DNA of 59,710 nucleotides from a virus (lineage: Duplodnaviria > Caudoviricetes), in the IMG/VR virus record IMGVR_UViG_3300022917_000001, positions 1-59,710 of that record; one strand, written 5' to 3'. Of this stretch, positions 29,043 to 59,710 are shown one piece after another. Below the pieces are notes generated by a model. That model saw only the letters and a program-made list of their open reading frames with translations, did no database searches and was not told where the DNA came from. The position numbers and the translations under genes were made by a program. Each line of letters opens with the position of its first letter. The first letter of the stretch is position 1.

Positions 29043-29045
29043 CGG

Positions 29046-33664: not shown

Positions 33665-33671
33665 CAGGGAG

Positions 33672-34429: not shown

Positions 34430-34457
34430 GGGGTTCCTCCGGGTGGTGTGGGGTCGG

Positions 34458-34799: not shown

Positions 34800-34895
34800 G
34801 ACTGCTGGACCTCCGCGGAAGACGGGACAGGACCGGGCGGCAGAAGAAGGGCGGGGCAGAGCGCGGCCACCCGGTCCGCGCCCCACCCCACGTCA

Positions 34896-35558: not shown

Positions 35559-35633
35559 CCCGCGTCCTCCTAGGTTCGGGGCGTGATGAAACGGCCCCGT
35601 GAACAGCGGGGCTGAAAGGGAACCGGGTGGTGG

Positions 35634-36044
35634 TCAGACAGTCCGCGGGCGACGCCACACGAACCGGTACGTGCCGATCTTGCGAGCCAAGTCCGGATTG
35701 TCGTACGGCACCCGCACCGGTGAGGTAGCCGTCTCCGCCAAGTCGATCAAGACCCCGCCGGGGAAGTCCTCCGTCACGACTCGCGTCGCCGCCGACGCCA
35801 AGATCGTGACCGCGCAGTCACGCGCGAGCTTCCGCGCCACGTCGTACGACTTCGCGAAGCACGCCACCTCCACCAGCGGCCGATCGCTGATGCCGTCATC
35901 GACACCACCAACCCGCGTCACCTGGATGACCGGCGCGTCCTCCTCCAGCTGCTCGTCCGTGGTGGTCGTCGTCGGCGCCCGCCCTGCGAGCAGCGCCATC
36001 ACCACGTCCTCCGCGTCAGGGAACGGCGGCAGCGCTGTCCCCAT
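35634..36044 (-). CDS. Tail terminator
   Basis: FPDAED, VTRVGG; position. Confidence 0.82.
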   Translation of the reverse strand: MGTALPPFPDAEDVVMALLAGRAPTTTTTDEQLEEDAPVIQVTRVGGVDDGISDRPLVEVACFAKSYDVARKLARDCAVTILASAATRVVTEDFPGGVLIDLAETATSPVRVPYDNPDLARKIGTYRFVWRRPRTV

Positions 36045-36361
36045 CAGCCGCGCTCGATGATCGGGATCGATGAGCGCAGCGCATGGTCGCCGGAACGCTT
36101 CCGACTGCCGAACTCCACCGACGCCGAGTGGTCCGCGTCAGCGACGATCTCCGCGCCCACCCGGTCCTTCTTCACTCCGACGGCCGTGACCCGCTCGACG
36201 TGAATCGACCGCATGTGCTCGCCGGTGTCCTCCCGCGTACGTGCACGGGCGAAGTCCGCGCCCAGTTCCGCGCGCTCTGCGCACAGGTCCGCGAGCTCAC
36301 CGGACATCAGCAGCGGCTTTAGCCCGACGGAGTTGGGCCGGTAGTCGGTGATCTTGGCCAT
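36044..36361 (-). CDS. Neck protein (HK97 gp10-like)
   Basis: DTGEHMRSI, VEFG. Confidence 0.8.
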   Translation of the reverse strand: MAKITDYRPNSVGLKPLLMSGELADLCAERAELGADFARARTREDTGEHMRSIHVERVTAVGVKKDRVGAEIVADADHSASVEFGSRKRSGDHALRSSIPIIERG

Positions 36362-36735
36362 CAGCCCTTCACATCCTTCAGCGCCGTCTGCATACCCGGC
36401 GCCCAGCCGGTGAAAGGGGACTGCCACGAACCCGGCTCGCCGTCGACCTTGTACCGCTTCCCGCGGTACTGGGCAGGCACCAAAGCGACCGCGGGCAGCT
36501 GCACCTCGTCAGTCGCCTTCAGGTCCGAACCGGGCGGGGACAGCAGCACCAGACCCTCGGTGATCGTCACCCGCGCGTCCAACTGCTCGCGCGACACGTT
36601 CCCCGAGCTCGCCGGGTAGACCGCGCACCCGCTGATCGTGTGGTGCGGGGCCGACGTCGAGTCACCCCACCGGTCCTTCGGCGCGACGTCCCGGTACACC
36701 TCGACCGTGAACCCGAACGCGAACCCCGCGGTCAC
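36361..36735 (-). CDS. Head-to-tail stopper
   Basis: DRWGD, YKVDGEPGSWQSPFTG. Confidence 0.85.
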   Translation of the reverse strand: MTAGFAFGFTVEVYRDVAPKDRWGDSTSAPHHTISGCAVYPASSGNVSREQLDARVTITEGLVLLSPPGSDLKATDEVQLPAVALVPAQYRGKRYKVDGEPGSWQSPFTGWAPGMQTALKDVKG

Positions 36736-37181
36736 CAGCAGTCCCGGCGCTCGAAGTCGTCCTCCCGGTCGACCAGCACCGGCTTGCGCAGCACGTGCGG
36801 CAGGGCGTCGTCGACCATCTCGATCGACACCGGCCCGGACCGCAATCCGAGGCGCCGCCGATCGTCGCGGGTGAGGTACAGCTTCCCGCTGGCCACCGTC
36901 TGGTCGACCGTGACCGCGAACGGCCCGGCCGTCTGCGAACTCGCGCCCGCAGTGTTGCGGCGGACCCGCAGCACCATGTCGCACACGACCATCCGCACCA
37001 GCTTCGCGGTCGTGCGACCTGCGGCGATGTGCGCGGCCAAGTCCCGGTTGCGCACATAGCCCGCGATGATTTCCTCTGCGTTGTCCAGCTTTCGCTGCAG
37101 GTGCGCGTCGAGACTGTCGGGCAGGTCGCCCTCGAACTCGGCGCGAAGGTCTGCCAGGGAGGCGTACGTCGACACGATCAA
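36732..37181 (-). CDS. Head-to-tail adaptor
   Basis: YASLADL, MVLRVRRN..QTAGPF. Confidence 0.85.
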   Translation of the reverse strand: MIVSTYASLADLRAEFEGDLPDSLDAHLQRKLDNAEEIIAGYVRNRDLAAHIAAGRTTAKLVRMVVCDMVLRVRRNTAGASSQTAGPFAVTVDQTVASGKLYLTRDDRRRLGLRSGPVSIEMVDDALPHVLRKPVLVDREDDFERRDCW

Positions 37182-37203
37182 CCTCCCTGGCAGACGAGCA
37201 CGG

Positions 37204-37467
37204 TCAGGACGAGAGCGGCTTCCACGCCTTGCGCGTGTCGTCCGCCGCCGACGACGGAGGCGTGTCGTTCGCCTTCGCCGTGCCGCCGGTGACCCCTGCG
37301 ACGGTGTAGTCGTCGTTGTTCTTCTCCGGGTGCACCTGGCCGATGTACCCGTGCTCCGTGCCGTCCTCCGGAGCGACGTAGTTCGGGGCCGCAGACTCGG
37401 CTGCCTTCGCCGTGCCGCCGTCCTTCGCGGGCTCGGCTGCCTTGTCGGTACTGCGCTGCGTTGCCAT
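37204..37467 (-). CDS. Small capsid-region protein (87 aa)
   Basis: GYIG..NDDYTVAGV; AGAGGA RBS. Confidence 0.65.
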   Translation of the reverse strand: MATQRSTDKAAEPAKDGGTAKAAESAAPNYVAPEDGTEHGYIGQVHPEKNNDDYTVAGVTGGTAKANDTPPSSAADDTRKAWKPLSS

Positions 37468-37481
37468 CAGGACAGGTCCTC

Positions 37482-37892
37482 TCAGCTCGACGCCGTGCGG
37501 GACAGGGTCACCCTGGCGAGACCGCCGGGGTCGGCGATACCGGTGCCGACCGCAACCGACCGCCACTGCAGGACGTCGCCCTCGGCCACCAGCAGGTCCG
37601 CCGCGGTGGCGGACAGCGGGATCGTCTTCTGGTCGTTCGCCGCCGCGTTGACCCCGGACGCGAAGTTCAGGGTCGCGATGACCGTGGTCCCCGCACCGGC
37701 CTGGCCCTTGTTGACCAGGCTGACGGTGCGGTTGTTGGTCGCCGCACCGGTGATCGCGGACTCGGGGATGTACTCCACCGCCGTCACGGTCCCCCCGAAG
37801 GGAGCTTGCGTGAGCACGGTGTCGTCGGAGTTGCCCGCCGTCGACACCGCGGGGACATCGGCCTCGATCGGCCGGACGAAAGGTGCGCTCAT
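37482..37892 (-). CDS. Putative capsid decoration protein
   Basis: 136 aa beta-rich, right after capsid gene. Confidence 0.7.
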   Translation of the reverse strand: MSAPFVRPIEADVPAVSTAGNSDDTVLTQAPFGGTVTAVEYIPESAITGAATNNRTVSLVNKGQAGAGTTVIATLNFASGVNAAANDQKTIPLSATAADLLVAEGDVLQWRSVAVGTGIADPGGLARVTLSRTASS

Positions 37893-37912
37893 GATCGCTG
37901 TGTCTCCTACGC

Positions 37913-38869
37913 TCAGAAGATCATGGCCGCAGCGGGGTACCGCGTGGCCTCGGTCGGGTTGTCGTCGTTCAGGGTGTTCGCGACCTGCCAGCCCACACGG
38001 AACTTGACCCGCATCGCGACCATGTCCTGCTGCGCCAGGTTGAACACGATCGCGCCCGTGTTGTCCTGGATCACGGCCTGGTCGAGCATCTTGAAGCTGA
38101 TGTCCTCGCGGACACCGACCACGAACTCGTTGCGGAAGTCCCCGGCGAACATGCGCACGTTCGTACCCGCGCCGCCGCTGGTGCCCCACGCGCCCCGCAT
38201 CGGGTACGCGATCGGCGCGCCGTCGATGGTCGCCAGGTCACCGCCCACGCGGCCGACGTCGAGCTTGCGGCCCTGCGTGTCACGCGCGGCCCGCAGCTTC
38301 CGGCGGGCACCACGGGACGCGACGAACCCGGTGACGTCGAATCCGTCCTCCTCGACCGCGCCGATGAGGTTGTCCAGGTCGCCCATGTAGCCGCCCGCGG
38401 CGGCCGTGGCCGTGCCCTCGGTGACCGTGTTGCCCGCGGCGATCGCCGCGGCCAGGACGTTCGTCGGGAACGACGACGGGGCGTTGCTGCCGAAGAACAC
38501 CGCCGTGTCCAACGCCTTGTGGAACGCCTCGACGATGTAGGGCTCCGAGGTGTCCCAGATGTCCATGTCCATGTCCGCGACCACGTTCTCGGGGACCGGC
38601 ATGATGATCGCCAGCTCCTCGATGGTCATGTACTTGTTGTTCCACGCCATCTCGGTGGTCTGCTTGAGGCCGGTGTCGCCGGTGACCCACTGCGCGACGG
38701 GCAGCGCCGACAGGATCGGGAAGCGGACCTGCTTGCGCGACACGGGGATGCGGCGGAACAGGTCGAGCACCGCGGAGCCCTGCGTGTCCTTGCCGAGCAT
38801 CTCCCGCGAGACCTCTTCGGGGATCGTCGCCTCGACGTCTCCGCGGGTCGTGATGTTGTTGTACGGCAC
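37913..38869 (-). CDS. Major capsid protein (HK97 fold)
   Basis: EELAIIMPVPE, NLAQQDMVAMR. Confidence 0.95.
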   Translation of the reverse strand: MPYNNITTRGDVEATIPEEVSREMLGKDTQGSAVLDLFRRIPVSRKQVRFPILSALPVAQWVTGDTGLKQTTEMAWNNKYMTIEELAIIMPVPENVVADMDMDIWDTSEPYIVEAFHKALDTAVFFGSNAPSSFPTNVLAAAIAAGNTVTEGTATAAAGGYMGDLDNLIGAVEEDGFDVTGFVASRGARRKLRAARDTQGRKLDVGRVGGDLATIDGAPIAYPMRGAWGTSGGAGTNVRMFAGDFRNEFVVGVREDISFKMLDQAVIQDNTGAIVFNLAQQDMVAMRVKFRVGWQVANTLNDDNPTEATRYPAAAMIF

Positions 38870-38919
38870 GGTCTACCTCCAGATTCTGCGCACAGCGGTC
38901 CGGCCGTGCCGCTGGCTGA

Positions 38920-39528
38920 TCAGCCGATCCCGACGGAACGTCGGATCAGCGCGTTCATGTCCGAGGGGGCCTTACTGCCCGTCTTCCCTTGGTCGGGGTC
39001 GGGCGTGGGCCGTCCTGCGGCCTTGCGGAGGGCGCCGACGATGCGAGCGATCGCTTTCTCGTCGGGGTCGCCGTCCTTGAGCAGGCGTTTCGGGTCGAGC
39101 TCGTCGAGGAGTTCCTTGACGTCGTCCGCCTTGATGCCCGCATCGGCGAGCCCGGAACGGACGTCGGCGAGCGCGAGCCGCTCGGCGCGCTTGGCGTCCC
39201 GCTCGTCACGGGCGGCCTGCTCCTGCTTCAGCTCCTCGACCTGCTCCTGCAGCGTCTTGGCCTGGTCGGCAGCGCCCTTGTTCTCCTTGGCACGCTGCTC
39301 CCACGTGCGGGAGTGGTCGAGCTTCTTCTTCAGCTCGGTGACGCTCAGCCCCGTCTCGGCGGCGAACGCCTTCCACTCCGCCGAGCCCCAGTCGTCCGTC
39401 GTGGTCGTGGTGGTGGTTCCCGTTCCGGTCCCCGCCGCGCCCGACCCATCGGTCACTGTGCTCGTGGTCGTGTCGGTGCCTGCCTGGCCGCCGTCTGCGG
39501 GCGCGCCAGTACCAGCGTCACTGCTCAT
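38920..39528 (-). CDS. Scaffolding protein
   Basis: HSRTWEQRAKEN, coiled coil, DMNALIRR. Confidence 0.88.
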   Translation of the reverse strand: MSSDAGTGAPADGGQAGTDTTTSTVTDGSGAAGTGTGTTTTTTTDDWGSAEWKAFAAETGLSVTELKKKLDHSRTWEQRAKENKGAADQAKTLQEQVEELKQEQAARDERDAKRAERLALADVRSGLADAGIKADDVKELLDELDPKRLLKDGDPDEKAIARIVGALRKAAGRPTPDPDQGKTGSKAPSDMNALIRRSVGIG

Positions 39529-39535
39529 TGGTGTG

Positions 39536-39569
39536 CTCCCGTTTCGGGATGGACCGCGCCCGTTCCGGG
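39536..39569 (-). promoter_or_regulatory. Twin-hairpin leader motif over scaffold RBS
   Basis: 31/34 identical to 44157-44190. Confidence 0.7.
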
Positions 39570-39580
39570 CACGGAGGCTT

Positions 39581-40384
39581 CTAGGAGGCGAGATCCGCCT
39601 GGGCGGTGAACCGGTCACGCGGCCGCACCAGCAGCGGCCCCAACTCGCCGTGCTCCGGGGTCATCTGCACCAGCAGATCCCGGTAGTCCGGGGCCCGGCC
39701 GCCGCGGTCCGCCTGCCCGGTCAGTTGCTCGACTGCGGTGTGGACCTGCTCCAGCAGTTCCGGCGCGATCACCTGGCCAGGGTCGCGGCCGAAGATCGGC
39801 GACACGAAGCAGTCGCAGTTGCCGTGGATCGGGTTCAGGTCCTCGACCGTGTACCGCTGGGTCGACGCGAGCACGCACAACCCGCAGTTCTCCAGCCCGG
39901 ACAGCTCCCGACGCCAGAACCGCGGACGCGCATGCGTGGGCAGGCCGCGCATGGCCGCGCGCGAAGCGCGCGCGTAGGTCTGCTGCAGGTCCATCTCGGC
40001 GATCTCGCCCAGCCGCACCTCGCCGAGCCGGATGGCCTCGGTGAGCGACTTGCCCTGCGACAGCGCGTTGTAGATCGTCACGAACGGCCGCCTGTACACC
40101 TCGGCGACGTCGATCCCGGCCCTCAGGTCGACCGCGTCACCCGCGGGGATACCGGGAGGGCCGACCGGGCGCCGCAGCGCCGCACCGGCCTGCTCAGCGG
40201 TGAACGCCGCGACCAGAGCCGCCAGCGCCTGCTGGGTGCCGCCGACCAGCGGCACCACCTGCGCTACGAACCGGTCAGCGTCCCGATCCCGCCACGACCC
40301 GAGCCCGGTGAACAGCTTCACCAGCGTCGCGACGAGCCGGATCGACATCGTCCGGCGCGTTCGCGCGAACTGGTCCGGGGTCAC
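39581..40384 (-). CDS. Minor head / capsid maturation protein (MuF-like)
   Basis: WRR..CGLCVLAS..PIHGNCDC; HGELGP. Confidence 0.85.
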   Translation of the reverse strand: MTPDQFARTRRTMSIRLVATLVKLFTGLGSWRDRDADRFVAQVVPLVGGTQQALAALVAAFTAEQAGAALRRPVGPPGIPAGDAVDLRAGIDVAEVYRRPFVTIYNALSQGKSLTEAIRLGEVRLGEIAEMDLQQTYARASRAAMRGLPTHARPRFWRRELSGLENCGLCVLASTQRYTVEDLNPIHGNCDCFVSPIFGRDPGQVIAPELLEQVHTAVEQLTGQADRGGRAPDYRDLLVQMTPEHGELGPLLVRPRDRFTAQADLAS

Positions 40385-41850
40385 GGCGTGGCCGGTTCAC
40401 CCGGCGCCTGGAACGCGGGCGGCTGCGGAGCGGCCGGTTGAGGCGCAGGGGCAGACGACGGCGGAGCGGCGAACGCGGCCATTGCCGACGCCGACGCCAT
40501 CTCCGACCGCAACCGATCCACCCGTTGCGGAGACCAGCCGACCTCTTCCACCGCCATCGGCAGCGGAATCCCCGCGTCCTTCATCTTCGACAGGTAGTCG
40601 CCGATCTGGGACGGCACGAAGTTCTCCGGCCGCGCCCACACCATCTCGCTGTCCGACAGGTCCCGGTCCAGTTCGGCGGCGAGCGCCATGAGCTGCAGCA
40701 CCTCTTCGAGGCCTTCGCCCCACAGTGCGCTGTTCTGCCGCACCTGGGCGTTGTGCCCCGCGTCCAGAGCGGCGATCGCCTCCGCGCCGATGTTCGTGAT
40801 GTCGCCTGGCAGGTAGTAGACCGGCGTCAACGTGACCGCGGCGAACGCCCGCATGTCCGACTCGACACCACGCAACATCCCCGACGTGTCGGTCTGCTGC
40901 AGCTGCACCAGTTGGATAGCGGGGTCGCCGGGCTCGTCCGGCGGCGGGATCGTGCCGATCTGCGTGACACCGGGCTTCCACGGCGCGATCGGCTCGCCCG
41001 TCACCGGGTCCTCATCGACCTTGTAGTTCAACAGGATCGCTTGACGGAACGCCGCGTACCGCTCGGACGACAACCGGTTGAGCAGGGTCAGGTTCAGCCG
41101 GTTCTGGTCGTCGATTCCGGCGTCGAACGCGGAGACCGGCTCGTCGCCCTCGTCGCCGTTGAGGAACCCGATGACCGGCACGCCGCGGAGGGTTTTGCCT
41201 TCCGGCTCGCGTTCCTCCCAGTCCTCGGGTTTGAACGAGATCCTGCCGCCCGCGCGTTTCTTCCCGACCTGCTGCCTCGACTGCCAGTGCAGCCGCCGAC
41301 CAGGCCCGGTGTCCGTCGTGCCGAGCAGGTAGAGGGTGGCCATCCACCGCTTCGCGATGTCGTCGTGCCACAGCCGCAGCGCCGCCAACCGCCGGCTCGA
41401 GTCAGCCGGGTCGGTCTCGACGATCACCGTCTCCGGACCCTCGATCGTGACCCGCGGCTTCTTCGACACCTTCGGGTCCACGCCGACGATCACATACGCG
41501 CCCGAGCGGGAGTAGGCCTTGCGCCAGATCCCGAACTGGCGAGCGTCCAGGCGTTGCCGCTGCCACAGCTTCCACACCGGGTCCGGTTCGCTGGACGTCC
41601 ACGCCGGGTCGCGAAACCCGATCGCGTTCGTCCGATGCACCCGTGACTCCACGCACAGCTTGCACAGGTTCGTGCGCGCCATCTTCTGGAACCGTCGGTA
41701 GGCCGCCGCGTGCTGGTTCGGGCCTGCGGGGAGGTCGTGGTTGCCGTCGTAGTAGCGGCGCCAGAACCGGACTGCCGGTTGCCGGTCGATCAGCTTCTGA
41801 CCCAGGCGAGCCAGCCACTCGAACGGCTCCAGGTCGGCGGCCTCAGCCAA
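40381..41850 (-). CDS. Portal protein (SPP1 gp6-like)
   Basis: YYDGNH, RTNLCKLCV, ERYAAFRQ; TTG start after AAGGGGG. Confidence 0.93.
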   Translation of the reverse strand: MAEAADLEPFEWLARLGQKLIDRQPAVRFWRRYYDGNHDLPAGPNQHAAAYRRFQKMARTNLCKLCVESRVHRTNAIGFRDPAWTSSEPDPVWKLWQRQRLDARQFGIWRKAYSRSGAYVIVGVDPKVSKKPRVTIEGPETVIVETDPADSSRRLAALRLWHDDIAKRWMATLYLLGTTDTGPGRRLHWQSRQQVGKKRAGGRISFKPEDWEEREPEGKTLRGVPVIGFLNGDEGDEPVSAFDAGIDDQNRLNLTLLNRLSSERYAAFRQAILLNYKVDEDPVTGEPIAPWKPGVTQIGTIPPPDEPGDPAIQLVQLQQTDTSGMLRGVESDMRAFAAVTLTPVYYLPGDITNIGAEAIAALDAGHNAQVRQNSALWGEGLEEVLQLMALAAELDRDLSDSEMVWARPENFVPSQIGDYLSKMKDAGIPLPMAVEEVGWSPQRVDRLRSEMASASAMAAFAAPPSSAPAPQPAAPQPPAFQAPGEPATP

Positions 41851-41883
41851 CAGGCCACCCCCTTGGATCACGTGTGGTGGTGG

Positions 41884-43560
41884 TCAGAACGCTGCCGACC
41901 TGCGCTTCTTGCGGGGCCGGTTCAGGCCCTTGGCCACCGCGTCGCCGCGGCACTGAAATGCGAGAACCGCCGCCATCGCCGCATCGATCTTCTTCGGCGA
42001 CTTCGCGTACTCCTTACCGATCGTGACGCCGACCTTCCCCGCCAGCCTCCGCCGCGCGTGCAGCACGTGCTGCGTCAGCACCATGTCGCCGCTGTGCGAG
42101 GCCTGCTTCGACTTCACCGCCTCGTACAAGCGAGAGACCGCCTGAACCACCGCGGACGGCCGGGTCGTCCACCACTCGATCGGCTTCGCTTGCGTCGCCC
42201 GCACACGCATCCGGCGGCCGTACAACGACCCCCAGCGGTCCACGTAGGTCTGCCAGTACGGCGGATCCGCGTAGAACCCCACGACCTCGTACCGCTTCAT
42301 CACGGCTGCCACCGCGGCGTCGACAACCTCGCCGTCGACACTCCAGTCTTTGCCCGCCGGACCGACAGGCTTCTGCCAGATCGTCGGTGCGCCGTCGTAC
42401 TCAGGGACGAACAGGTGCCCGTCAGAGACGCGGCACGCAACCAGCGCGGTGGAGTCCTCGCTGACCGCACCGTCGAAGCCGAGCACGATCCGTTCGCCGT
42501 CGAGCACGTGGATCGTGGTGTCCCTGACCGCTTCCCACTTCTCGACCGGCATCCACGCATCGCCAGCGGACGTGCGCGCGTTGAGGAAGAACCGGCGCGA
42601 GTCCTCAGGGTCTTTCCGCGGGTCGTAGAACTCGTCGACGGTGCCGTCGAGGTCGTTCCACTCGATCGTCTCGCCGAACGCTTCGAGGATCGCCGCGCGC
42701 AGCATGTCCTCGGCGGAGAGGTCGTCGCACTCGCCCCACCGGTGGTCGTACAGCAACCGCTGCCGCCGCGCCCGGCCCTGCGCGATCGCTTCCGCGAGGG
42801 TGTAGGTGTTCTCCGCCACCGAGTCCTCGCCCGGCGCGAACATCGTCGTCGTCTCCAGGTACCAAGTGCCCGCGGTCTTCTTTCGCTTCCGCAGGTTCCG
42901 GGTGACTGTGTTGTACATGCGCCGCAGCTCAGGCTGGTTGTACAGGTGCGTTTCGTCGAAGACGACGAAGGTCTCCAGGCCACCGTCCTTCGACGCGCTG
43001 CTCGCGGTGGACGGGAGGATCTCTCCGCCGTCGGGCAAGTTCGTGCGGGTCAAGCCCGCGTCCGCGCCCACCGCAGACAGTGGCGCGTCCTCGTCCGTCA
43101 GGTTGTAGAAGATCGAGTCGTAGACGTTCCCGGTCTGGCCCTCCTCAGTGGCCATCGCCCGGATCATCGGGTTCTTGACGTGCCGACCCATCGGCTCGCC
43201 CGGCTCGTACACGTACCGGAACCCCAGGCCCCACGGGTCCTCGTAGACCTCGCCACCCTGCGCCCAACCAGCGAACCGGCACGGCCCCAACGCCTCGAAC
43301 AGGCCGAAGCGCGCGCCGAGCCCGGACTTGTCCGCACCCTTCGGCCTCGAGTAGAACGCCGAGTCGTACGACATGCGGCCGTTCTCGTCCAGCGCGTAGC
43401 AGTCCGCGATGAACCCGGCCACCTCGTCGCCGTGCGAGACGGCCATCCCGGCGGCGTCACCGCGGCCGTGGACGACGAAGAACTCCATCCACGCGTTCGC
43501 CAGCCAGCCGAGGGACCGCATCCGGTCGTGGCCTGGAGCCCGCACCAGCGTGCGGGGCAC
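41884..43560 (-). CDS. Terminase large subunit
   Basis: RPKGADKS, FDETH, GFDG..DSTAL, KIDAAMA. Confidence 0.96.
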   Translation of the reverse strand: MPRTLVRAPGHDRMRSLGWLANAWMEFFVVHGRGDAAGMAVSHGDEVAGFIADCYALDENGRMSYDSAFYSRPKGADKSGLGARFGLFEALGPCRFAGWAQGGEVYEDPWGLGFRYVYEPGEPMGRHVKNPMIRAMATEEGQTGNVYDSIFYNLTDEDAPLSAVGADAGLTRTNLPDGGEILPSTASSASKDGGLETFVVFDETHLYNQPELRRMYNTVTRNLRKRKKTAGTWYLETTTMFAPGEDSVAENTYTLAEAIAQGRARRQRLLYDHRWGECDDLSAEDMLRAAILEAFGETIEWNDLDGTVDEFYDPRKDPEDSRRFFLNARTSAGDAWMPVEKWEAVRDTTIHVLDGERIVLGFDGAVSEDSTALVACRVSDGHLFVPEYDGAPTIWQKPVGPAGKDWSVDGEVVDAAVAAVMKRYEVVGFYADPPYWQTYVDRWGSLYGRRMRVRATQAKPIEWWTTRPSAVVQAVSRLYEAVKSKQASHSGDMVLTQHVLHARRRLAGKVGVTIGKEYAKSPKKIDAAMAAVLAFQCRGDAVAKGLNRPRKKRRSAAF

Positions 43561-43566
43561 CGCGGG

Positions 43567-44148
43567 CTACCCGGACAGCCGCTGGCGACGCGACGCGATG
43601 TCCGTGACCGGCGCCGTGCTGGGCTCGGTCGGCTTCACCGCCTGCTGCACGGCCGGGGCGATCTCCCAGCGGAGCCGCAGCAACGCCATCGGCGACAACC
43701 CGAGCCGGTCAGCGTGCTGACGGGCCTCCCGCGCGTGGTCCAGGTCGCCGTTCTCCGCGAGCACCTTGTGCCGCACGAACTGCGCCACCTCGCGCGCCCA
43801 CCGCAGCAGATGCCACTGGGCGGCCTGCGGCGTCCGCCACAACTCCCGCCACAGTGCGACCTCGGCGTCATGCTGGATCTCCACGACGTGCTCCAGAACG
43901 ACAACCTTCTCCTTGGCGCGAGTGAGCGCGCTCTCGGAGACGTTCAGGCCCTCGTCGCGCTTCCACTCCAACTCGGATAGCTTCTCGCGCGCGACCTGGA
44001 GCTTCGCCTGCGTGACGATGTCCGTGCCGAGCGGCCATTCAGGGGCCTTGCCCCTGAAGCCCTCGCCGGGCAGTTGGGTGATACCGGGCGTCGCGTTCCG
44101 CCTGCGCCGCGCTGCCGCGTCCTTCGGCGGTGGTCCCATTCCAGCCAT
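43567..44148 (-). CDS. Terminase small subunit
   Basis: GPPPK..RRN, LWRTPQA..W, LGLSPMALLRLRW. Confidence 0.9.
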   Translation of the reverse strand: MAGMGPPPKDAAARRRRNATPGITQLPGEGFRGKAPEWPLGTDIVTQAKLQVAREKLSELEWKRDEGLNVSESALTRAKEKVVVLEHVVEIQHDAEVALWRELWRTPQAAQWHLLRWAREVAQFVRHKVLAENGDLDHAREARQHADRLGLSPMALLRLRWEIAPAVQQAVKPTEPSTAPVTDIASRRQRLSG

Positions 44149-44156
44149 CGTGATCA

Positions 44157-44190
44157 CTCCCGTTTCGGGATGCAGCGCACCCCGTTCCGG
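44157..44190 (-). promoter_or_regulatory. Twin-hairpin leader motif over terS RBS
   Basis: CCCGGAACGGG-N7-CATCCCGAAACGGGAG. Confidence 0.7.
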
Positions 44191-53599: not shown

Positions 53600-53646
53600 A
53601 AAACCCGAGACACCCGCCAGTCGCAGGCACCGGCAGGCCTCGGGTC
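53600..53646 (-). terminator. Probable terminator of the GntR operon
   Basis: Imperfect stem acccgag..ctcgggt followed by TTTT on minus strand. Confidence 0.55.
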
Positions 53647-53666: not shown

Positions 53667-53915
53667 CTACTCGTCACCCCAGGCGCCGAGCCGCCGCATC
53701 GGCGTCACCGTCACCGGCGCGACCCCCAGAAACCGCCGATGCGCGCCAGCGTTAGCCGCCGCGTAGTTGTCGCGGCACGCCACCGCACCCGGAACACGGC
53801 CAGCGGCGTGCTCGGCTTCCTCGCGAGTCTCGAACTCCCCGCCGAGCCACCGTCCGGACGCGTCACGGACGATCCACGGCAACACCTCAGTGGGGCTCGG
53901 GTACCTCGTCGTCAC
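53667..53915 (-). CDS. Hypothetical protein coupled to GntR gene
   Basis: GTGA overlap, GGAGGAG RBS. Confidence 0.65.
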   Translation of the reverse strand: MTTRYPSPTEVLPWIVRDASGRWLGGEFETREEAEHAAGRVPGAVACRDNYAAANAGAHRRFLGVAPVTVTPMRRLGAWGDE

Positions 53916-54748
53916 GGCTCCTCCTCCTGGTCGTCCTCGCCAGTGTCCGTCACCTGCGGCGACTCCACCGCCGGATCAGGCGGCCACCCCGCCGACGCGT
54001 CCCGCCCGAGCACGATCACCGTCTCGAACCGCGCGCCGTCCATGCGGGTGTCGTTCACCTCGACCGGCCGCCCGTCCTCAAGCGACGCCGTCCGCGCGAT
54101 CCGGACCAGCGCCGCCCCCGCTGGAACGTTCAAGCGTTTCGCCTCTGCGGCCGTTGCGCTGACCGCGCCCTGCGCCTCCACCGGATCCGCGAGAGGCCGG
54201 CCGAAGTGCTCCTCGATCCGGTCGTAGATCCCGCCCGGCCCGGTGATCGGCTCGCCGATGATCGGCAGTTCGCTGTGGAGCCAGCCGGGCAGGTAGCTGG
54301 TTGCGATCTGCAGCGGCGTCGGCCGCGTCCGCTTCGTCCCAGGCTTGCCCAACACCCGGTCCCGCACGACCACCGGCGACCCCGGCGGCACCTGCAGGCG
54401 GAGAGCGATGTCCGGGGACGCGGGCAACACCTCGACCGTCGGTTTCCCGACCAGCCGCAGGCCTTGGCCTTCGGGGTCGAAGTAGTAGCCGAACCGGTCG
54501 CGGAACATCGCCCGGTGTCGTGCGATCCGGATCAGGGCGGGGCCGAGTACGACCGTGCCGCGGCCGTGTGACCCGCGGACCAAGCCCTCGGCGGCCAGTG
54601 TGCGGTAGGCGGTCCGGACGGCGGACTCGCCGACACGCCAGAGTTCTTGGGCGGCTTTGACGGTGGGCAGGCGGTCCCCTGGAGCGAGCTCACCTGTGGT
54701 GATCCGCTCCCGCAGGTGTGCGGTGAGGTCGTCGGCCGGTTGCGTCAT
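53912..54748 (-). CDS. GntR/HutC-family repressor with UTRA domain (KorA/TraR/KorSA-like)
   Basis: GELAPGDRLPT..AYRTLAAEGLV..GRGTVV; ATSYLP, GPGGIYDRIEE, GRPVEVND; divergent from traB operon. Confidence 0.92.
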   Translation of the reverse strand: MTQPADDLTAHLRERITTGELAPGDRLPTVKAAQELWRVGESAVRTAYRTLAAEGLVRGSHGRGTVVLGPALIRIARHRAMFRDRFGYYFDPEGQGLRLVGKPTVEVLPASPDIALRLQVPPGSPVVVRDRVLGKPGTKRTRPTPLQIATSYLPGWLHSELPIIGEPITGPGGIYDRIEEHFGRPLADPVEAQGAVSATAAEAKRLNVPAGAALVRIARTASLEDGRPVEVNDTRMDGARFETVIVLGRDASAGWPPDPAVESPQVTDTGEDDQEEEP

Positions 54749-54855
54749 CGCCATCCTTCTGGTCAACTCGTGGCACCATACTTGCAGGCGCACCGCTAAG
54801 TCTGCAATCCTAGCCCGGGCACACACCGCCACCGCTTAACCACGCAGGGGGACCC

Positions 54856-55005
54856 GTGACCAGCGCAACCGCAACGTGCACCCACCCCTCGACAACCACC
54901 AGCCACGTCAACACCCCACACGGCCCCGCCATCTACACCCAGTGCACGAACAACGCCTGCAACCACCTCGTCAGCGCCGAATACGCCACGAACCAGCGAC
55001 GCTGA
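54856..55005 (+). CDS. Small Cys/His protein (49 aa), first gene of transfer operon
   Basis: AGGGGG RBS; CTH..CTNNACNH; absent from ORF track. Confidence 0.5.
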   Translation: MTSATATCTHPSTTTSHVNTPHGPAIYTQCTNNACNHLVSAEYATNQRR

Positions 55006-55030
55006 CCCAGCGGAACCGGAGAACACCACA

Positions 55031-55186
55031 ATGGGCACCGCCCGCCAGAAGACCGCCAAGCAGATGAAGGCCGCGCTCGACCGCGGTGACCTCGACACCG
55101 CCCAGAAAGCCCTCCACCAGGCTGGCAAGCAGGACCCCACCCTCGCCGCCGACATCGCCAACCACTTCAAGGAGCAGCGCCGATGA
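55031..55186 (+). CDS. Small helical protein (51 aa)
   Basis: GGAG RBS, ATGA coupling; absent from ORF track. Confidence 0.65.
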   Translation: MGTARQKTAKQMKAALDRGDLDTAQKALHQAGKQDPTLAADIANHFKEQRR

Positions 55187-55428
55187 CCACCGACGACCTC
55201 ATGGACCCCTACGGTGCCGCCAAGCGCGCAGACACCTACCTGCTGGAAATCGCGGCCCAGCCGCCGGTCACCCGCAAGGAGCACACCCAGGCCTCGATGG
55301 CCATCCTCGCCCTCGCCTCGGTCCTGCTGACCGGGTTCGAGGAGTGGCAGAAGCAGAGGTCCCGTGACCTGACCCAGGTCGCCGGTGTGCACGCGGCTCT
55401 CGCCCTCGTGGCGCCGGACGTCCACTAG
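55183..55428 (+). CDS. Hypothetical protein (81 aa)
   Basis: AAGGAG RBS. Confidence 0.7.
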   Translation: MTTDDLMDPYGAAKRADTYLLEIAAQPPVTRKEHTQASMAILALASVLLTGFEEWQKQRSRDLTQVAGVHAALALVAPDVH

Positions 55429-55521
55429 CCCCCGGTCGGGGCGGGTGACCTCCCGCCAAGAAGAACCCCCGCCCCGACCGGGCCCTCAACCCAGCCAACA
55501 CCTGACCAGAGAGGTCCGCCC

Positions 55522-55833
55522 ATGCTCCCGGGTACCGGCCGCGCACTCAAACGCGCAGCCACCCTCGCCGTCCTCCTCGGCACCTCGCTCGCCCCTGCTG
55601 CCGTCGACTCCCACCCGGCGCTGGTCATCTGGCACGACGGGCCCTCCGTATCCGGACGCGGACCCGACCAGCAGCACTACGTCCTCTGCGTGCCCGCGGC
55701 GGACCCGGTCGACGGTCCGCTGACCGAGGTCCGCGTTGCCGCGGCCGACGCCCACCCGGTACCTGACCCGGCTACCGGGCTGCACCGGTACAGCGAAGGC
55801 CGCCCGTGCCCCGACCCGTCGAACGAGGACTAG
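55522..55833 (+). CDS. Secreted/membrane-anchored small protein
   Basis: Signal-peptide-like N-terminus, GAGG RBS. Confidence 0.7.
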   Translation: MLPGTGRALKRAATLAVLLGTSLAPAAVDSHPALVIWHDGPSVSGRGPDQQHYVLCVPAADPVDGPLTEVRVAAADAHPVPDPATGLHRYSEGRPCPDPSNED

Positions 55834-55835
55834 CC

Positions 55836-56306
55836 ATGGGCACCAGCACCGTCGAGCTCACCGACGCCATCGACACCCTCGGCCTCGCCTACCACGAAGT
55901 CGGGCACGGTCTCGTCGCCCGCGCCAGCGGCATGGCCGTGCGACGACTGCGACTCGAACGCTCCTGGAGCGGCCGAGTCACCTGCGGCTACACCCTGCTC
56001 AAGCAGCCCGAACCCGACGCGGCCACCACGGTGTGGCGCGGGTACGCGGTGATGCTGTTCGCCGGGGTCACCGCCCAAGCCCGCTACCTCGACCAAGTCG
56101 GGGCTCTCACCAGCCGAGTCCAAGCCGTCCTCGACAAGAACACCGGCGACTTCGAGGACTGGCTGCAGCACCGCCACCTGTGCGGCATCACCGAATCCGC
56201 CGCCCGCCGAGCCGCCGCCGCGTACTGCGACACCCACTGGCCGCGGATGACCCGCCTCGCCGAACGCCTCGCCACCAACTTCCAGCTGTCGGGGAGCGCA
56301 CTGTGA
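55836..56306 (+). CDS. Stand-alone HExxH Zn peptidase (M41/FtsH protease-like domain)
   Basis: AYHEVGH, LFAG, GDFE. Confidence 0.75.
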   Translation: MGTSTVELTDAIDTLGLAYHEVGHGLVARASGMAVRRLRLERSWSGRVTCGYTLLKQPEPDAATTVWRGYAVMLFAGVTAQARYLDQVGALTSRVQAVLDKNTGDFEDWLQHRHLCGITESAARRAAAAYCDTHWPRMTRLAERLATNFQLSGSAL

Positions 56307-56569
56307 CCAGCCTCTGGATCGCCGCACGTCGGGCGTGGTGGTGGGCCAGTTACCGCCTGATCCTGCTGGTGCTGTCGCTGCTGGCACTGCTGCGGTGGGT
56401 GCTGTTCGGGCTAGCCGTGCTGGCGCACCGCTGCCACTCGCGGCTCGCCGCTCACGGCCAGGTCGTCGCCGACACCCTCGGCGCCACCGCCTACAGCAAC
56501 CAGACCAAGCCGAACAACGACCGCTACGCGCGCGTCGTCTACTCCCTCCTCGACCCCAAGGACCTCTGA
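56303..56569 (+). CDS. Small membrane protein (88 aa)
   Basis: Coupled both sides; hydrophobic N-half. Confidence 0.7.
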   Translation: MTSLWIAARRAWWWASYRLILLVLSLLALLRWVLFGLAVLAHRCHSRLAAHGQVVADTLGATAYSNQTKPNNDRYARVVYSLLDPKDL

Positions 56570-56922
56570 TGGCCAAGCCCAACCCGTTCGACGAGCTCAC
56601 CGAGATGGAACTGCGGGACCCCGACGCGCTCTACGAGTTCTGCGACATCGTCCGCAACCTGTCTCGCGACTTGTCGTTCGCGTTGCAGTTCCAGGCCGAG
56701 ATGCTGCAGGCCGACCTGGGCACCGTGAAGGTCACCGAAGGCCGTTTCGGGGCGCTGTCGTCCAAGGCGCGCGCCAAGACCGTCGCGTCCTGCCTGCGGC
56801 TCGGCGCGGAGGCCGTGACCCACGCCGGGCGACTGTCGGTGAAGTGCTACTCGCTGTTCAAGCGCTACTACCTGACCGAAGAGCCGACCGAGAGCAAGCC
56901 CCGTTTCAAGCTGCCTGCCTGA
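56569..56922 (+). CDS. traA: TraA-like plasmid transfer protein (117 aa)
   Basis: Helical, KARAKTVA..L motif, immediately upstream of traB as in Streptomyces plasmids. Confidence 0.6.
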   Translation: MAKPNPFDELTEMELRDPDALYEFCDIVRNLSRDLSFALQFQAEMLQADLGTVKVTEGRFGALSSKARAKTVASCLRLGAEAVTHAGRLSVKCYSLFKRYYLTEEPTESKPRFKLPA

Positions 56923-56947
56923 CCACCCCTGATCGGAGGAGCACGTC

Positions 56948-58909
56948 GTGTCGAAGAACCTGGTGGCCGCAGCCAAGGATCGGGCGGTGAAGCAGGCCGC
57001 CAGCCGGGCGTCTGTCGTGGTGCGCCCGGCGGCGGCGTTGACCGGCGAGCTGGGTCTGTCGGTGGCGCTGTGGGCGGCCGCCGGGCCGGAGTCGCTGCCG
57101 TGGATGACCCCCGCCCTGTCGCTGTCCACTGCGGGGTTGACCGCGATGGTGTGGCACATCGGCCGTGACCGCACCCCGGTTGGTCGGATCCTGGGCGTCG
57201 GCACCACGGCGCTGACCGGGGCGCACCTGATCGCCGCGTCCATCGTGGGCCCGTTCACGTCGCCGTTGATCGGGATGTGGGGGTGGCTGGGCGGGACCGC
57301 GGTCGCGGCGTGGGTGGTGCGGCTGTGGGTGGCCCGCGACGACGCCACCGTGCAGGGCGCCAAGGACCGGGCGTCGGGGTGGGACGACATCGCCGGGCGC
57401 ACCGGCGGCGCCCTGCAAGGTTCGCTGTTCCGCCCCAAGGAGGTCACGGCAGACAGCATGAAGGGCCCGTTGCAGTTGGAGCCGGGCGCCACGGTCAAGG
57501 ACGCCCAGACCTCGGGGGCGACACTCGCGTCGGTGCTGAAGTTGCCGCCGGGCGGGGTGACCATCACTCCCGACCCGACCGACGCGTCCAAGGGCGAACT
57601 GACCCTGGTGCGGGTTGACGTGCTACGAGACCTCGTCTCGTATGCGGGCCCCTCCGCGTTAGGCGGCACCCCGGTGCAGCCGTACCGGATCGGCCGGTAC
57701 CGCACCGCCAAGACCGCGCTCCTGCCGCTGCACATCCCGAAGTTCGGCGAGATCCACCTGCTGATCATGGGCATGACCGGCGCGGGGAAAACCTACGGCG
57801 CGTACATGCTGTTCGCCGAAGAGTTCACCCGCACCGACACCTACACGATCTACGTCGACACCGTGAAGGGCGCCCAGAGCTTGGGGCCGATCGCGGGCGG
57901 GATCCGGTGGGCGATGCGCACCGAGGCCGAAGCGCTCGCCTTGATGAAGGCGCTTCAGGACCGGGTGATCCCCGGCCGTGCCCAGTACCTCGGTAAGCGG
58001 AAGCTCAAGGTGTGGGAGCCGGGTTGCGGCCTGGTGCGGTTGCGTATCCACGTCGAGGAGGGCGCTGGCCTGTTCCTCGGGAACAAGGCGTTCACCCGCG
58101 TGCTGGAGCGGGCACGCTCTGTCGGTGTTCAGCTGACCGTGTCCTTGCAGCGCCCCTCCTACACCACGCTCGACGTGTCCGCGCGCTCCCAGTTCGGTGC
58201 GGTGTGGTGCTTCGGCGTGGCCGAGACCGAGGACGCCCGGTTCGCGATGCCCGAGGAGGTGCTCAATGCCGGCGCGGACCCGAGCGTGTGGAAGAACAAG
58301 CTGCCGGGTTGCTCCTACGTGGTAGCTCCGCAGATCGACGACGACGACCACGTGGTGCCGCTGCGCGCCGAGCTCCCCGCCGACGACGAGTTGGAGATGC
58401 TCGCCGAGTACGCGCGGATCAACGGCGACGAGTTGGACGCGGTCACCGCCGGCCTGTTCGGCGAGCTCTACACCTCGAGGATTCCGGTGGCGGACATGCT
58501 GGCCGACGACACCACGCCGATCGTGATCGACCTCGACGACGAGGACGACGCCCTGTTCGGTGACGAGAACGACGAGCCTGAGGCATGGGTGCCGTCGGAG
58601 GCGGATCCGGAGCCGAACGTGCAGCCCGACATCGACGATCCGATGGAGCGCCCGGCCAGCACGCTGACGTTCGGCGAGCGCGGCAAGGCCACGCCGGAGG
58701 AGGCCGCGGAGTTGTTCGAGACTCGGCTTCTGGGGCTGCAGCGGGCCGGGCAAGAGGAGGTCCGGGCCGCGGACATGGTCGAGGTCGCCCGCGCGGCGGG
58801 CCGGTCTCCGGCGTGGGTCTACAAGCAGCTCAAGCAGCGGGTGGCGTCGGGTCACCTGGTTCGCACGGACACCGGGTTCCGGTTCGCCCGAGCCCTCACC
58901 CCAGCATGA
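56948..58909 (+). CDS. traB: TraB-type FtsK/SpoIIIE conjugative DNA translocase
   Basis: N-terminal TMs, HLLIMGMTGAGKT Walker A, IHVEE Walker B, ARSVGV..SLQRPS, C-terminal wHTH GRSPAWVYKQL. Confidence 0.88.
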   Translation: MSKNLVAAAKDRAVKQAASRASVVVRPAAALTGELGLSVALWAAAGPESLPWMTPALSLSTAGLTAMVWHIGRDRTPVGRILGVGTTALTGAHLIAASIVGPFTSPLIGMWGWLGGTAVAAWVVRLWVARDDATVQGAKDRASGWDDIAGRTGGALQGSLFRPKEVTADSMKGPLQLEPGATVKDAQTSGATLASVLKLPPGGVTITPDPTDASKGELTLVRVDVLRDLVSYAGPSALGGTPVQPYRIGRYRTAKTALLPLHIPKFGEIHLLIMGMTGAGKTYGAYMLFAEEFTRTDTYTIYVDTVKGAQSLGPIAGGIRWAMRTEAEALALMKALQDRVIPGRAQYLGKRKLKVWEPGCGLVRLRIHVEEGAGLFLGNKAFTRVLERARSVGVQLTVSLQRPSYTTLDVSARSQFGAVWCFGVAETEDARFAMPEEVLNAGADPSVWKNKLPGCSYVVAPQIDDDDHVVPLRAELPADDELEMLAEYARINGDELDAVTAGLFGELYTSRIPVADMLADDTTPIVIDLDDEDDALFGDENDEPEAWVPSEADPEPNVQPDIDDPMERPASTLTFGERGKATPEEAAELFETRLLGLQRAGQEEVRAADMVEVARAAGRSPAWVYKQLKQRVASGHLVRTDTGFRFARALTPA

Positions 58910-58951
58910 TCAACAGAGCGGGGCGGGGCCCGCTCGCCCATCCCCCAGACC

Positions 58952-59127
58952 TGTCACCCCCACAGTCAGCCCGAGAGTGTGCGGTCAGAGGGGGTGAGAC
59001 GGGGGTGAATCACCCCCGTGACAACCAGGGTGAGACGGGGGTGACAAGGGGTGAATCCAGGGTGACACCGCAGGTGACAGGGGTGACAACCAGGGTGAAT
59101 CACCCCCACGTCACCCCGTCTCACCCC
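58952..59127. repeat. clt-like array of GGGTGA(CA) repeats (candidate TraB recognition sites)
   Basis: 9 forward GGTGA cores mostly 9-12 bp apart plus 5 reverse copies, directly after traB. Confidence 0.8.
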
Positions 59128-59154
59128 ACCACGACCACGCGAAAGGACCGCACC

Positions 59155-59710
59155 ATGACCACCGCCCTCACCGCGCCTGACGGAGGCTGGAAGAGTCGCC
59201 GCGCCCGCCGTCGGGCGGAACTCGCGCAAGCCATGAACCTCCTCACCGACGCCCGCCGCAAGCGGGCCACCCAGTCTGCGGCGGAGCGCGCCGCCGGGCA
59301 GTCCGAAGACCCGATGAGCTGGCCACTCCGCATCCTCGCCGGACTGGTCGCGCTGATCGTGCTCGCCGTCGCCGCCGTCATCGGTGTCGTCATCATCGGC
59401 GCCCAGATCGGCTTCTACCAGGCGAACCTCACCGTCAAGACCATCAGCTTCGCCGCCCTCGGCGTCGACACCCCGCTGGACCTGCCGACGTTCACCCCGA
59501 TCGCGACCGAGGGCGTGGTGTGGGCGACCACCCTGCTCGCGGTAGTGATGGTCCTGCTCAACCGCACCGCCACGCTGTGGACCCAGTCGATGTGGTTCTT
59601 CGCGTCAATCGCGGCGTTCGTGAACACCTGGCACTCGGTGTTCGAGGAGAAGGACCTGTTCGGTGGCCTGCTCCGTGGTGGCCTGTCGCTGGCGGGCCCG
59701 TTCTTGGTGC
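59155..59710 (+). CDS. 5' part of Spd/DUF2637-like membrane protein (continues to 1020)
   Basis: GAAAGGA RBS, ATG 59155, open through junction, several TM helices; missed by ORF track. Confidence 0.8.
   Translation, partial: MTTALTAPDGGWKSRRARRRAELAQAMNLLTDARRKRATQSAAERAAGQSEDPMSWPLRILAGLVALIVLAVAAVIGVVIIGAQIGFYQANLTVKTISFAALGVDTPLDLPTFTPIATEGVVWATTLLAVVMVLLNRTATLWTQSMWFFASIAAFVNTWHSVFEEKDLFGGLLRGGLSLAGPFLV

Follow-up and report, generated by a model that had tools for sequence, protein, structure and literature searches.

A TraB-type DNA transfer module with a candidate clt on the circular genome of a temperate siphophage

Introduction

It is customary to handle gene flow by phages and by conjugative elements separately, and tools that call the one usually discard the other. 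What, then, is to be made of a molecule on which both sets of genes appear to be present? We addressed this question with IMG/VR virus record IMGVR_UViG_3300022917_000001 (Duplodnaviria; Caudoviricetes), whose entire 59,710 nucleotides are referred to here as the window and in which a cassette of transfer genes related to those of Streptomyces plasmids lies within the genome of a siphophage. A first-pass annotation, made from the sequence and its open reading frames (ORFs), had proposed that this cassette, together with the integrase and replication genes of the phage, supplies every module of an actinomycete integrative and conjugative element (AICE) while the virion genes look intact. Our analysis favors, at a rough probability of 60%, a circular temperate siphophage that carries a terminator-insulated double-stranded DNA (dsDNA) transfer module of the Streptomyces plasmid and AICE type, which would provide a contact-dependent, virion-free route of spread beside its particles. 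The host of this phage is probably a mycelial actinomycete of the Pseudonocardiaceae.

Results

The central gene of the cassette encodes an ATPase of 653 residues that sequence comparison identifies as a TraB homologue (Table 1). The protein aligned with the NCBIfam model NF041214 over nearly its full length (E 4.7e-115; residues 20-643 on model positions 5-627 of 639), which was the sole NCBIfam model with a match at E <= 0.01. Because its score of 385 bits is below the equivalog cut-off of 800, we regard it as a divergent homologue and not as an equivalog. In PHROGs, the unnamed family phrog_24831 matched at 2e-96 and phrog_1358 at 6.6e-6 only. A Walker A motif (G275..GKT282) and a Walker B-like motif (H368-V-E370-E371) are invariant in 29 relatives, and an AlphaFold model built from the alignment of these relatives (predicted local distance difference test, pLDDT, 76) returned FtsK motor domains as its top ten Foldseek matches (E 5e-15 to 3e-13; template-modeling score by target 0.52-0.62), with TcpA, EccC and HerA ranking behind them. 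Residues 583-646 form a winged helix-turn-helix (wHTH) of three helices and two strands (pLDDT 84-90), and the C-terminus aligns with those of the TraB proteins of pWTY27 and pJV1. The N-terminus is modeled as long helices (residues 3-132, pLDDT 45-64), with no segment over the Kyte-Doolittle threshold of 1.6. These results agree with the earlier description of a traB-like gene with intact Walker motifs and a wHTH, placed after a traA-like gene in one operon; the TraA-like product matched NF041213 (E 7.8e-13, 48.8 bits, cut-off 80).

An FtsK or EccC identity for the ATPase was considered and rejected, as NCBIfam gives TraB only and the tree joins the protein to plasmid and chromosomal TraBs against host FtsK; a phylogenetic check of this kind had been proposed along with the original call. 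The tree was a quick maximum-likelihood reconstruction of 73 rows (LG+G4, with SH-aLRT, an approximate likelihood-ratio test, as the only support measure), rooted on one long FtsK branch. A clade of 30 members including the window protein formed one group (support 99, stem 0.47), and the pJV1 and pWTY27 proteins grouped with 27 chromosomal TraBs (support 93). In the Lentzea cavernae genome, PF01580 detected FtsK and EccC and missed the TraBs. The TraB regions of 51 actinomycete plasmids in PLSDB matched the window protein at about 30% identity, and in 24 of the 51, pJV1 and pWTY27 among them, at least 80% of the query was covered; a tblastn search with it against 50,697 phage genomes gave nothing at E <= 1e-5.

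Directly downstream of traB lies the phased repeat array that had been noted at first reading, in which we counted 13 copies of GGGTGA, eight on the plus strand and five on the minus strand, with inverted copies flanking the plus-strand ones. The genome holds 75 GGGTGA/TCACCC copies in total, so that 13 within 196 bp represent an enrichment of about 53-fold, and each of the 12 richest 200-bp windows overlaps the array. The plus-strand copies are spaced by 11, 25, 11, 10, 11, 12, 9 and 12 bp, a phasing of about 11 bp. The published transfer loci (clt) of Streptomyces plasmids are of a similar kind: pWTY27 clt comprises the last 16 bp of the tra gene and 159 bp beyond, with Tra footprints on four TGACACC repeats, pJV1 clt has nine 9-bp repeats, and pSVH1 TraB recognizes 8-bp repeats through its wHTH. 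The pWTY27 locus thus occupies the same place 3' of traB, and its TGACACC is related to the GGGTGA(C/A/G)A of the window.

An array was found directly 3' of traB in all six elements read, namely the window, a Saccharothrix genome (G001, identical with G346), a 74-kb IMG/VR contig (G002), a podovirus-like contig (G003), the Lentzea cavernae chromosome (G005) and a 231-kb metagenome contig (L080). GGGTGA is the repeat in Lentzea (9 copies), Saccharothrix (8 copies) and L080 (copies uncounted); G002 has 15 copies of CCGTGA(C), and G003 four copies of CCTGACAC. The wHTH helix reads RSPAWVYK in the four GGGTGA elements, where the TraBs of the relatives are 57-64% identical to that of the window, and MTAAWLYK in G002, though the G002 TraB is 65% identical to that of the window (Saccharothrix, 57%). 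This single contrast is suggestive of protein-site pairs in which repeat and helix change together. The array is best described as a cognate-looking clt candidate.

The array is followed by a gene for a membrane protein of 482 amino acids, identical to protein P0043, which runs across the junction of the record and confirms the multi-helix gene predicted at this position. From a basic N-terminus the chain passes through four hydrophobic helices (Kyte-Doolittle; residues 63-81, 116-134, 172-190 and 218-236) and a long stretch, basic and disordered, to a helix-turn-helix at the C-terminus. By phmmer it reached four DUF2637-annotated proteins (E 2e-13 to 2e-9), to which hhalign aligned it at 99.6% probability and 63% identity over the last 75 residues only; its Lentzea homologue matched DUF2637 at E 0.13. 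A feature search of the Atlas placed it near DUF2637, HTH_SpdB_C and SpdB_N clusters at 0.91-0.92, which we take as a lead only. A tblastn search with it gave one plasmid and 0 of 50,697 phage records, and the G002 homologue is colinear at about 74-75% identity and 100% coverage. On architecture and C-terminal domain the protein is therefore termed SpdB-like, as distinct from a proven family member.

These genes are borne by what is, by gene content, a complete temperate siphophage. Bases 1-127 of the record are identical to 59584-59710, which indicates a circular assembly with a true size of 59,583 bp (G+C about 69%). Pfam and PHROGs scans of ORF sets defined by third-codon-position G+C (84 ORFs, and 69 ORFs in another scan) identified the full gene set of a temperate siphophage, including the large terminase subunit (TerL), portal, HK97-type capsid, tail tube, tape measure, lysin and integrase. 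The late module holds the small terminase subunit (TerS), TerL, portal, protease, scaffold, major head protein, adaptors, tail terminator, major tail protein, two chaperone ORFs, a 1,294-residue tape measure, tail proteins and a GH25 endolysin; none of the head, neck, tail, packaging and lysis genes to be expected is missing or interrupted, and the IMG/VR record carries a CheckV completeness of 100%. The early region encodes RecT, an exonuclease, the replication initiator and DnaB, and the block at 44200-53613 holds a primase-polymerase, two HNH genes, a collagen-like fiber gene and a tRNA-Met. No Par or plasmid Rep family was found among the 84 ORFs in the Pfam scan, and a tyrosine integrase is present instead. 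The earlier claim that integrase, initiator/DnaB and TraB share one circle with a virion gene set thus holds at the level of content. The nearest portal proteins are those of Streptomyces phages VWB, SF1 and SF3, at 34% identity only. Against 50,697 phage records, megablast gave no match for the cassette and, for the virion region, just a tape-measure match of 130-160 bp in 13 Gordonia phages. A search for the attB with window positions 19440-19930, on one side of int only, gave no match in 401 genomes.

No coverage break at the cassette borders, for which a check had been proposed, was seen in the read depth. Depth was taken from Logan's separate assembly of a leaf-litter run (X1) that is probably the source of the record, and the X1 contigs tile 42000-59710 at 37.6-41.6x, except for one bin at the tRNA-Met, where short contigs from other organisms raise the depth to about 194x in X1 and 219x in a second run (X2). 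A 12,652-bp Logan contig covers 46186-58837 with 0 differences and spans the left border, and a 7,877-bp contig runs from 58808 on past the end of the window. X2 and a third run (X3) contain just short or diverged parts of the stretch. At the other end, the circular join rebuilds the conserved 482-residue gene, colinear with its G002 homologue.

The cassette measures about 7.0 kb from hairpin to hairpin and runs against the minus-strand gene stream of the phage. Both border folds were more stable than their shuffled controls, in line with the hairpin-bounded cassette first described, and all elements named in that description were recovered at or close to their positions. The left one is likely the terminator of the GntR transcript and the right one likely a two-way terminator. 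Flanked by these terminators, the cassette would be transcribed independently and could be active in a lysogen. That the cassette is a recent insertion is no more than a possibility: the scan for cassette-free relatives with an empty site gave only L081, part of the same contig as L080, on which the phage genes of the left flank are syntenic with the cassette. The GntR/UTRA regulator, a candidate Kor/TraR protein, is divergent from the plus-strand gene string that extends from 55031 to 1020, a layout that matches the earlier description and is pJV1-like; a homologue with 54% identity occupies the same place in the Lentzea cavernae prophage. Cassette ORFs overlap through their stop and start codons, as do those of spd operons (Thoma 2015). 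The 166-residue protein with an HEVGH motif is 62% conserved in the Lentzea prophage and, by its zinc-protease motif, could be a protease acting on the regulator. ImmA of ICEBs1 is a protease of this kind. The 88-residue protein is kept beside traA in G002, G005 and L080. No Int or Rep was found inside the cassette in the Pfam scan, the whole circle having one integrase. A consensus promoter and terminator scan, ill-suited to DNA of 70% G+C, gave no promoter and one coding-region hairpin only.

Table 1 Features of the cassette and of the phage genome that carries it (positions in the window)
Feature	Position	Strand	Evidence
Terminal overlap of the assembly	1..127	none	Identity with 59584-59710
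SpdB-like gene, 3' part, with C-terminal helix-turn-helix shared with DUF2637-annotated proteins	1..1020	+	
Right border hairpin, 16-bp perfect G+C stem, between convergent genes	1036..1072	both	z -6.0 (+), -7.9 (-); 0/200 shuffles
Replication initiator and DnaB-type helicase	10933..13505	-	Pfam, PHROGs
Tyrosine integrase of the phage	19916..21277	+	Pfam, PHROGs
Late module, about 20 kb in one orientation	23663..44157	-	Pfam, PHROGs
Left border hairpin with U-rich tail	53602..53646	-	-34.1 kcal/mol, z -3.7; 0/200 shuffles as good
82-aa ORF downstream of the GntR gene	53667..53915	-	No family found (Pfam, PHROGs, NCBIfam)
GntR/HutC-type regulator, GntR helix-turn-helix and UTRA; candidate Kor/TraR	53912..54832	-	Pfam: GntR E 1.6e-14, UTRA E 1.4e-18
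Divergent intergenic region, regulator / plus-strand operon	54833..55030	none	Read only
Two small ORFs, 51 and 81 aa, stop/start overlap	55031..55428	+	No family found
Internal hairpin, 15-bp perfect stem	55431..55482	+	z -4.3
103-aa ORF	55522..55833	+	No family found
166-aa protein with HEVGH motif	55806..56306	+	Weak Peptidase_M50B-like match, E 2.5e-5, below cut-off
88-aa protein, one hydrophobic helix	56303..56569	+	Stop overlaps traA start
TraA-like protein, likely start ATG 56569	56569..56922	+	NF041213, phrog_38590
TraB, FtsK-like dsDNA translocase with C-terminal wHTH, 653 aa	56948..58909	+	NF041214
clt candidate, 13 GGGTGA copies (8 on +, 5 on -)	58940..59135	none	Repeat count
SpdB-like membrane protein gene, 5' part	59155..59710	+	ATG 59155; continues at base 128

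A large protein set yielded 38 TraB homologues, 29 of them full length and 45-94% identical to the window protein; named members of the clade are Lentzea cavernae and Saccharothrix violaceirubra. Other members lie, for example, on contigs of 24,980, 37,668, 38,375 and 56,566 bp. A single TraB sequence found nothing in viral contigs, whereas an alignment-based search recovered loci there; scans of genome contigs and of metagenome contigs gave one locus each. Gene context was examined for five of the 30 clade members (the window and four others), and all five lie inside or beside phage genomes; the five tree rows that represent the window, G001/G346, G002 and G005 are distributed across the deep branchings of this clade. 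The window TerL and capsid proteins had no relatives in G001-G005, where these functions were found by family searches instead.

In G002, a string of NUDIX, TraA, TraB, clt and SpdB-like gene stands between the lysin end of a plus-strand late operon and a minus-strand early operon with RecT/YqaJ, xis, cI and int at its end. On the Lentzea cavernae chromosome, GntR, HTH_17, TraA, TraB, clt, SpdB-like gene and YdjM have 26 kb of early-type genes on one side and, on the other, a late module in which lysin, tail, capsid, ClpP, portal and TerL were recognized; this prophage is on NZ_BNAR01000018.1 at about 45-108 kb. L080 and L081 are parts of one metagenome contig (Ga0196958_10000003) in which the left-flank phage genes are syntenic with the cassette, in the order of the window: portal, TerL, TerS, homologues of window 47844-53482, GntR and TraB. 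The IMG/VR provirus call on this contig (L081, IMGVR_UViG_3300020181_000318) stops just before traA/traB, and phage-borne TraB may be systematically under-counted owing to such boundary calls. In Saccharothrix (G001/G346), an HTH_31/DUF5753 gene lies at 5 kb and TerS at 20 kb from TraB, with tail genes 45-61% and an integrase 41% identical to those of the window; a 26-bp att repeat (92%, E 0.002) was too weak to set the limits of this prophage. Outside the clade, the 45-kb G003 (L023-L025) encodes Terminase_6N, a P22/SU10 portal, an SU10 capsid and adaptor, ERF and a DnaB-like gene, no integrase being found at E <= 1e-4. Its TraB-like ORF (L023:7430-10405, 32% identity), which is accompanied by the repeats given above and lies apart in the tree, is 2 kb upstream of TerL. 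A nearby GntR/UTRA gene is lacking in both G002 and G003.

Among 401 Pseudonocardiaceae genomes, the clade profile detected TraB homologues in 34 (the unpublished G067 is used in this count alone), most of the ordinary chromosomal type. Only G005 and G346 scored above 1,000 bits; the remaining genomes reached 366 at most. When the three weakest of the 34 were set aside, an HK97-type capsid, the one capsid family tested, lay within 50 kb of TraB on the same contig in just two of 31 genomes, G005 (20 kb) and G129 (34 kb). In G129:C2 (L067-L069), an AICE-type TraB between two tRNA-Leu(CAA) copies adjoins a prophage with capsid and tape-measure genes, which looks like a phage-AICE tandem at one tRNA site. 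The window, G002 and G005, unlike this adjacency, have phage genes on both sides of the module. The suggested survey of prophages for linkage of traB with capsid genes, here taken to include terminase genes, uncovered further cases.

Discussion

The gene kinds and their order in the cassette are those of the Streptomyces plasmids pJV1, pWTY27 and pSVH1, with GntR divergent from traA-traB in the pJV1 annotation, an FtsK-like motor with a wHTH as TraB, and a DUF2637 protein annotated near traA-traB in pWTY27. The plasmids differ in that their TraBs are only about 30% identical and form a separate clade, in that the SpdB-like gene precedes traA, whereas it follows clt in the window, and in size, since they measure 11-14 kb, against 59.6 kb for the phage of the window, to which virion, lysis and integrase genes also belong. 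On pWTY27 itself (L070, a 14-kb plasmid), a 'phage major capsid protein' is annotated at 4169-4842, 0.8 kb after traB-clt, as its authors noted.

AICEs such as pSAM2, SLP1 and pMEA300 share with the window an integrase, replication genes and a single FtsK-like Tra module, but are without virion genes, whereas the window has 20 kb of head, tail and lysis genes on the circle and replication genes of phage type (initiator, DnaB, RecT/exonuclease). Because the full virion and lysis module is present, we classify the window as a phage working like an AICE and not as an AICE. In Ghinet et al. 2011, 139 AICEs were predicted by the criterion of one integrase, one replication and one Tra gene per cluster, chromosomal fragments with one or two of the three components were set aside as likely remnants, prophages or other islands, and prophages are listed among the elements possibly bearing such matches.

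The nearest precedent is pZL12 (with pSLE1), one actinomycete replicon that serves as a phage and can also be transferred by means of a tra gene. It is an autonomously replicating plasmid-prophage with ParA/ParB, whereas the Pfam scan of the window gave an integrase and no Par genes; pZL12 does not appear among the 51 PLSDB plasmids with a match to the window TraB, being either absent from the collection or too distant. SpdB2 homologues occur on the actinophages phiC31 and VWB and were suggested to aid the spread of phage DNA. These temperate Streptomyces phages share a spread-type membrane protein with the window, but neither TraB nor clt is reported for them. FtsK/SpoIIIE-like genes of lytic Streptomyces phages belong to a different family. 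Among streptococci, the 'conjugative prophage' Phi1207.3 and tandems of a phage with an integrative and conjugative element are reported to move prophage DNA by cell contact; that transfer is single-stranded, of relaxase and type IV secretion type or undefined, and involves two elements, whereas the window would use a one-protein dsDNA pump and a cis site. Full-text literature searches, with subscription journals outside their coverage, returned no description of TraB and clt on an integrative phage, these streptococcal cases being the closest items they brought up. Temperate phages of mycelial actinomycetes with a cognate TraB-clt-Spd module are a real and recurrent combination that is apparently undescribed.

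By analogy with pSVH1, pWTY27 and pJV1, the following model may be proposed. The GntR protein would keep the operon off; once it is expressed, TraB would form hexamers in the membrane, and their C-terminal wHTH domains would bind the phased GGGTGA repeats in cis on circular (excised or replicating) phage DNA. The FtsK-like motor would then pump unprocessed dsDNA into a neighboring hypha or across septal cross-walls, assisted by the four-helix SpdB-like protein and the small co-translated proteins, and the phage integrase would establish the genome in the recipient. Since the transfer kit is on the phage and relatives occur in several prophages, phages may spread through the mycelium without particles, whose formation is in turn expected from the virion gene set.

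Several explanations compete with this model. That the element is an artefact, either a chimeric metagenome assembly or an AICE merely beside a prophage and misread as one element, is extremely improbable: the record is a short-read metagenome assembly and G129 shows a real AICE between two tRNA-Leu copies adjoining a prophage, but depth is flat, the left border is spanned without a difference by an independent contig, the junction rebuilds a conserved gene, the circle has a single integrase with neither Rep nor Int within the cassette, and the same order recurs in an isolate genome (Lentzea cavernae) and a second metagenome (L080/L081). Only slightly easier to credit is a phage-derived conjugative element with dead virion genes, the circle being a large excised AICE-like element. 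A circular assembly at 38-41x suits an excised episome as well as virion DNA, and intactness was judged by gene content only; yet the genes expected for head, neck, tail, packaging and lysis are all there without interruption, 20 kb in one orientation, CheckV gives full completeness, and G002, G003 and G005 show the same virion gene intactness.

The module could also be a passenger or repurposed piece of an AICE or plasmid, serving as neutral cargo, in exclusion, or in mobilization of the host chromosome through clt-like sites, with the phage genome itself not transferred. NUDIX genes, to whose class the pSAM2 immunity factor belongs, are found with the module in G001, G002 and L080, the cassette is insulated like a moron, and the capsid gene beside pWTY27 clt speaks for gene traffic between plasmids and phages. 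But no cassette ORF is disrupted, the stem of the TraB clade is long (0.47) and its 30 members, at 45-95% identity, are all full length, and in every element the array stays beside traB and varies along with the wHTH helix; because clt sits on phage DNA, that DNA is the obvious substrate, and we consider a passenger role quite unlikely. A more serious contender, though still an unlikely one, is that the module acts in movement only, carrying replicating or newly injected phage DNA through the septal cross-walls of a single mycelium, by which one infection or induction event would reach many compartments, with no mating between mycelia. Plasmid TraB and Spd proteins do drive intramycelial spreading, the portal is closest to those of VWB, SF1 and SF3, and the window and G002 share more identity in the SpdB-like protein than in TraB (74% vs 65%). 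Against this, the plasmid TraB-clt pair also performs the inter-mycelial step, the sequence holds nothing to separate both uses, and regulation varies, G003 and G002 being without a nearby GntR/UTRA gene, which gives no hint of timing.

Transfer of the phage genome by the TraB-clt pair, which we prefer, has to be held against a number of observations. The function is read from sequence by analogy with the plasmids, and the scores of TraB and of the TraA-like protein are below their family cut-offs. Pfam FtsK_SpoIIIE did not match TraB, giving just a sub-threshold DUF87, and a profile search of PDB sequences with TraB gave 0 matches. For the SpdB-like protein, Pfam gave nothing at E <= 10, DUF2637 included, and its DUF2637 likeness is confined to the last 75 residues. 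No GntR operator was identified on reading the intergenic sequence at 54833-55030, and none of the runs recorded as RNA contains the stretch. The depth data come from the probable source sample and hence are not independent of the assembly, the left limit of the Saccharothrix prophage is unsettled so that its module may fall outside it, and G129 illustrates that an AICE can simply adjoin a prophage. A 59.6-kb substrate exceeds typical AICEs, and a lytic phage that kills its donor gains less from conjugation.

A wider and more tentative reading, which we hold to be doubtful as yet, is that in mycelial actinomycetes the whole TraB lineage of 30 proteins is borne by phages and not by plasmids or AICEs, with a second, independent lineage on a podovirus-like phage, and that it serves a particle-free dsDNA route from hypha to hypha and across septa. 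Such a route would be functionally like the movement system of plant viruses, with conjugation and infection merged in one replicon. If the transfer model is true, prophages could spread in soil mycelia independently of receptors and of donor killing, host range and resistance through receptor loss would need rethinking, and the 'missing' transduction in Streptomyces-like bacteria would be partly explained. The separation of phages from conjugative elements has practical consequences, as in the AICE screen of Ghinet, where prophage-like clusters were discarded, and in the IMG/VR call of L081. Because relatives are present in cultured strains, namely Lentzea cavernae CGMCC 4.7367 and Saccharothrix G346/P0021, the question is directly testable.

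Additional observations

Just beyond the cassette, by 0.9 kb, the window encodes on the minus strand (1907-2407) a 167-residue membrane protein of three helices with a sub-threshold match to PycTM, a Pycsar effector. The linear plasmid pSGRIFU2 has, 4 kb downstream of a TraB-like gene, an annotated 'Pycsar system effector family protein', and no phage genes were found within 20 kb on either side of that TraB-like gene on this large plasmid. The PycTM/Pycsar effector family may belong to transfer modules rather than to defense.

An HTH_31/DUF5753 gene (window 21404-22477, minus strand) is present in all four annotated elements (window, G001, G002 and G005), and a DUF397 partner was found in the window and, by tblastn, in G001/G346; we take the two to be a WhiJ-like pair. 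The phage-borne tRNA-Met (CAT) lies at 49576-49652 on the minus strand, and the tape-measure gene contains a 135-bp tandem duplication of about two copies with 80-82% matches (31169-31495, minus strand).

Among the relatives, type I-E CRISPR-Cas genes (Cas6e-type, Cas7-type and Cse1) stand between phage-like genes and the TraB module of G001 (L015-L016, about 17.5-28.5 kb). Homologues of the anti-Thoeris protein Tad3 are encoded in G001 (L017:10893-11303) and G002 (L020:1323-2018), and the Lentzea cavernae prophage carries a cytosine-5 DNA methylase with an intein of Hint and LAGLIDADG type (L028:16993-19998).

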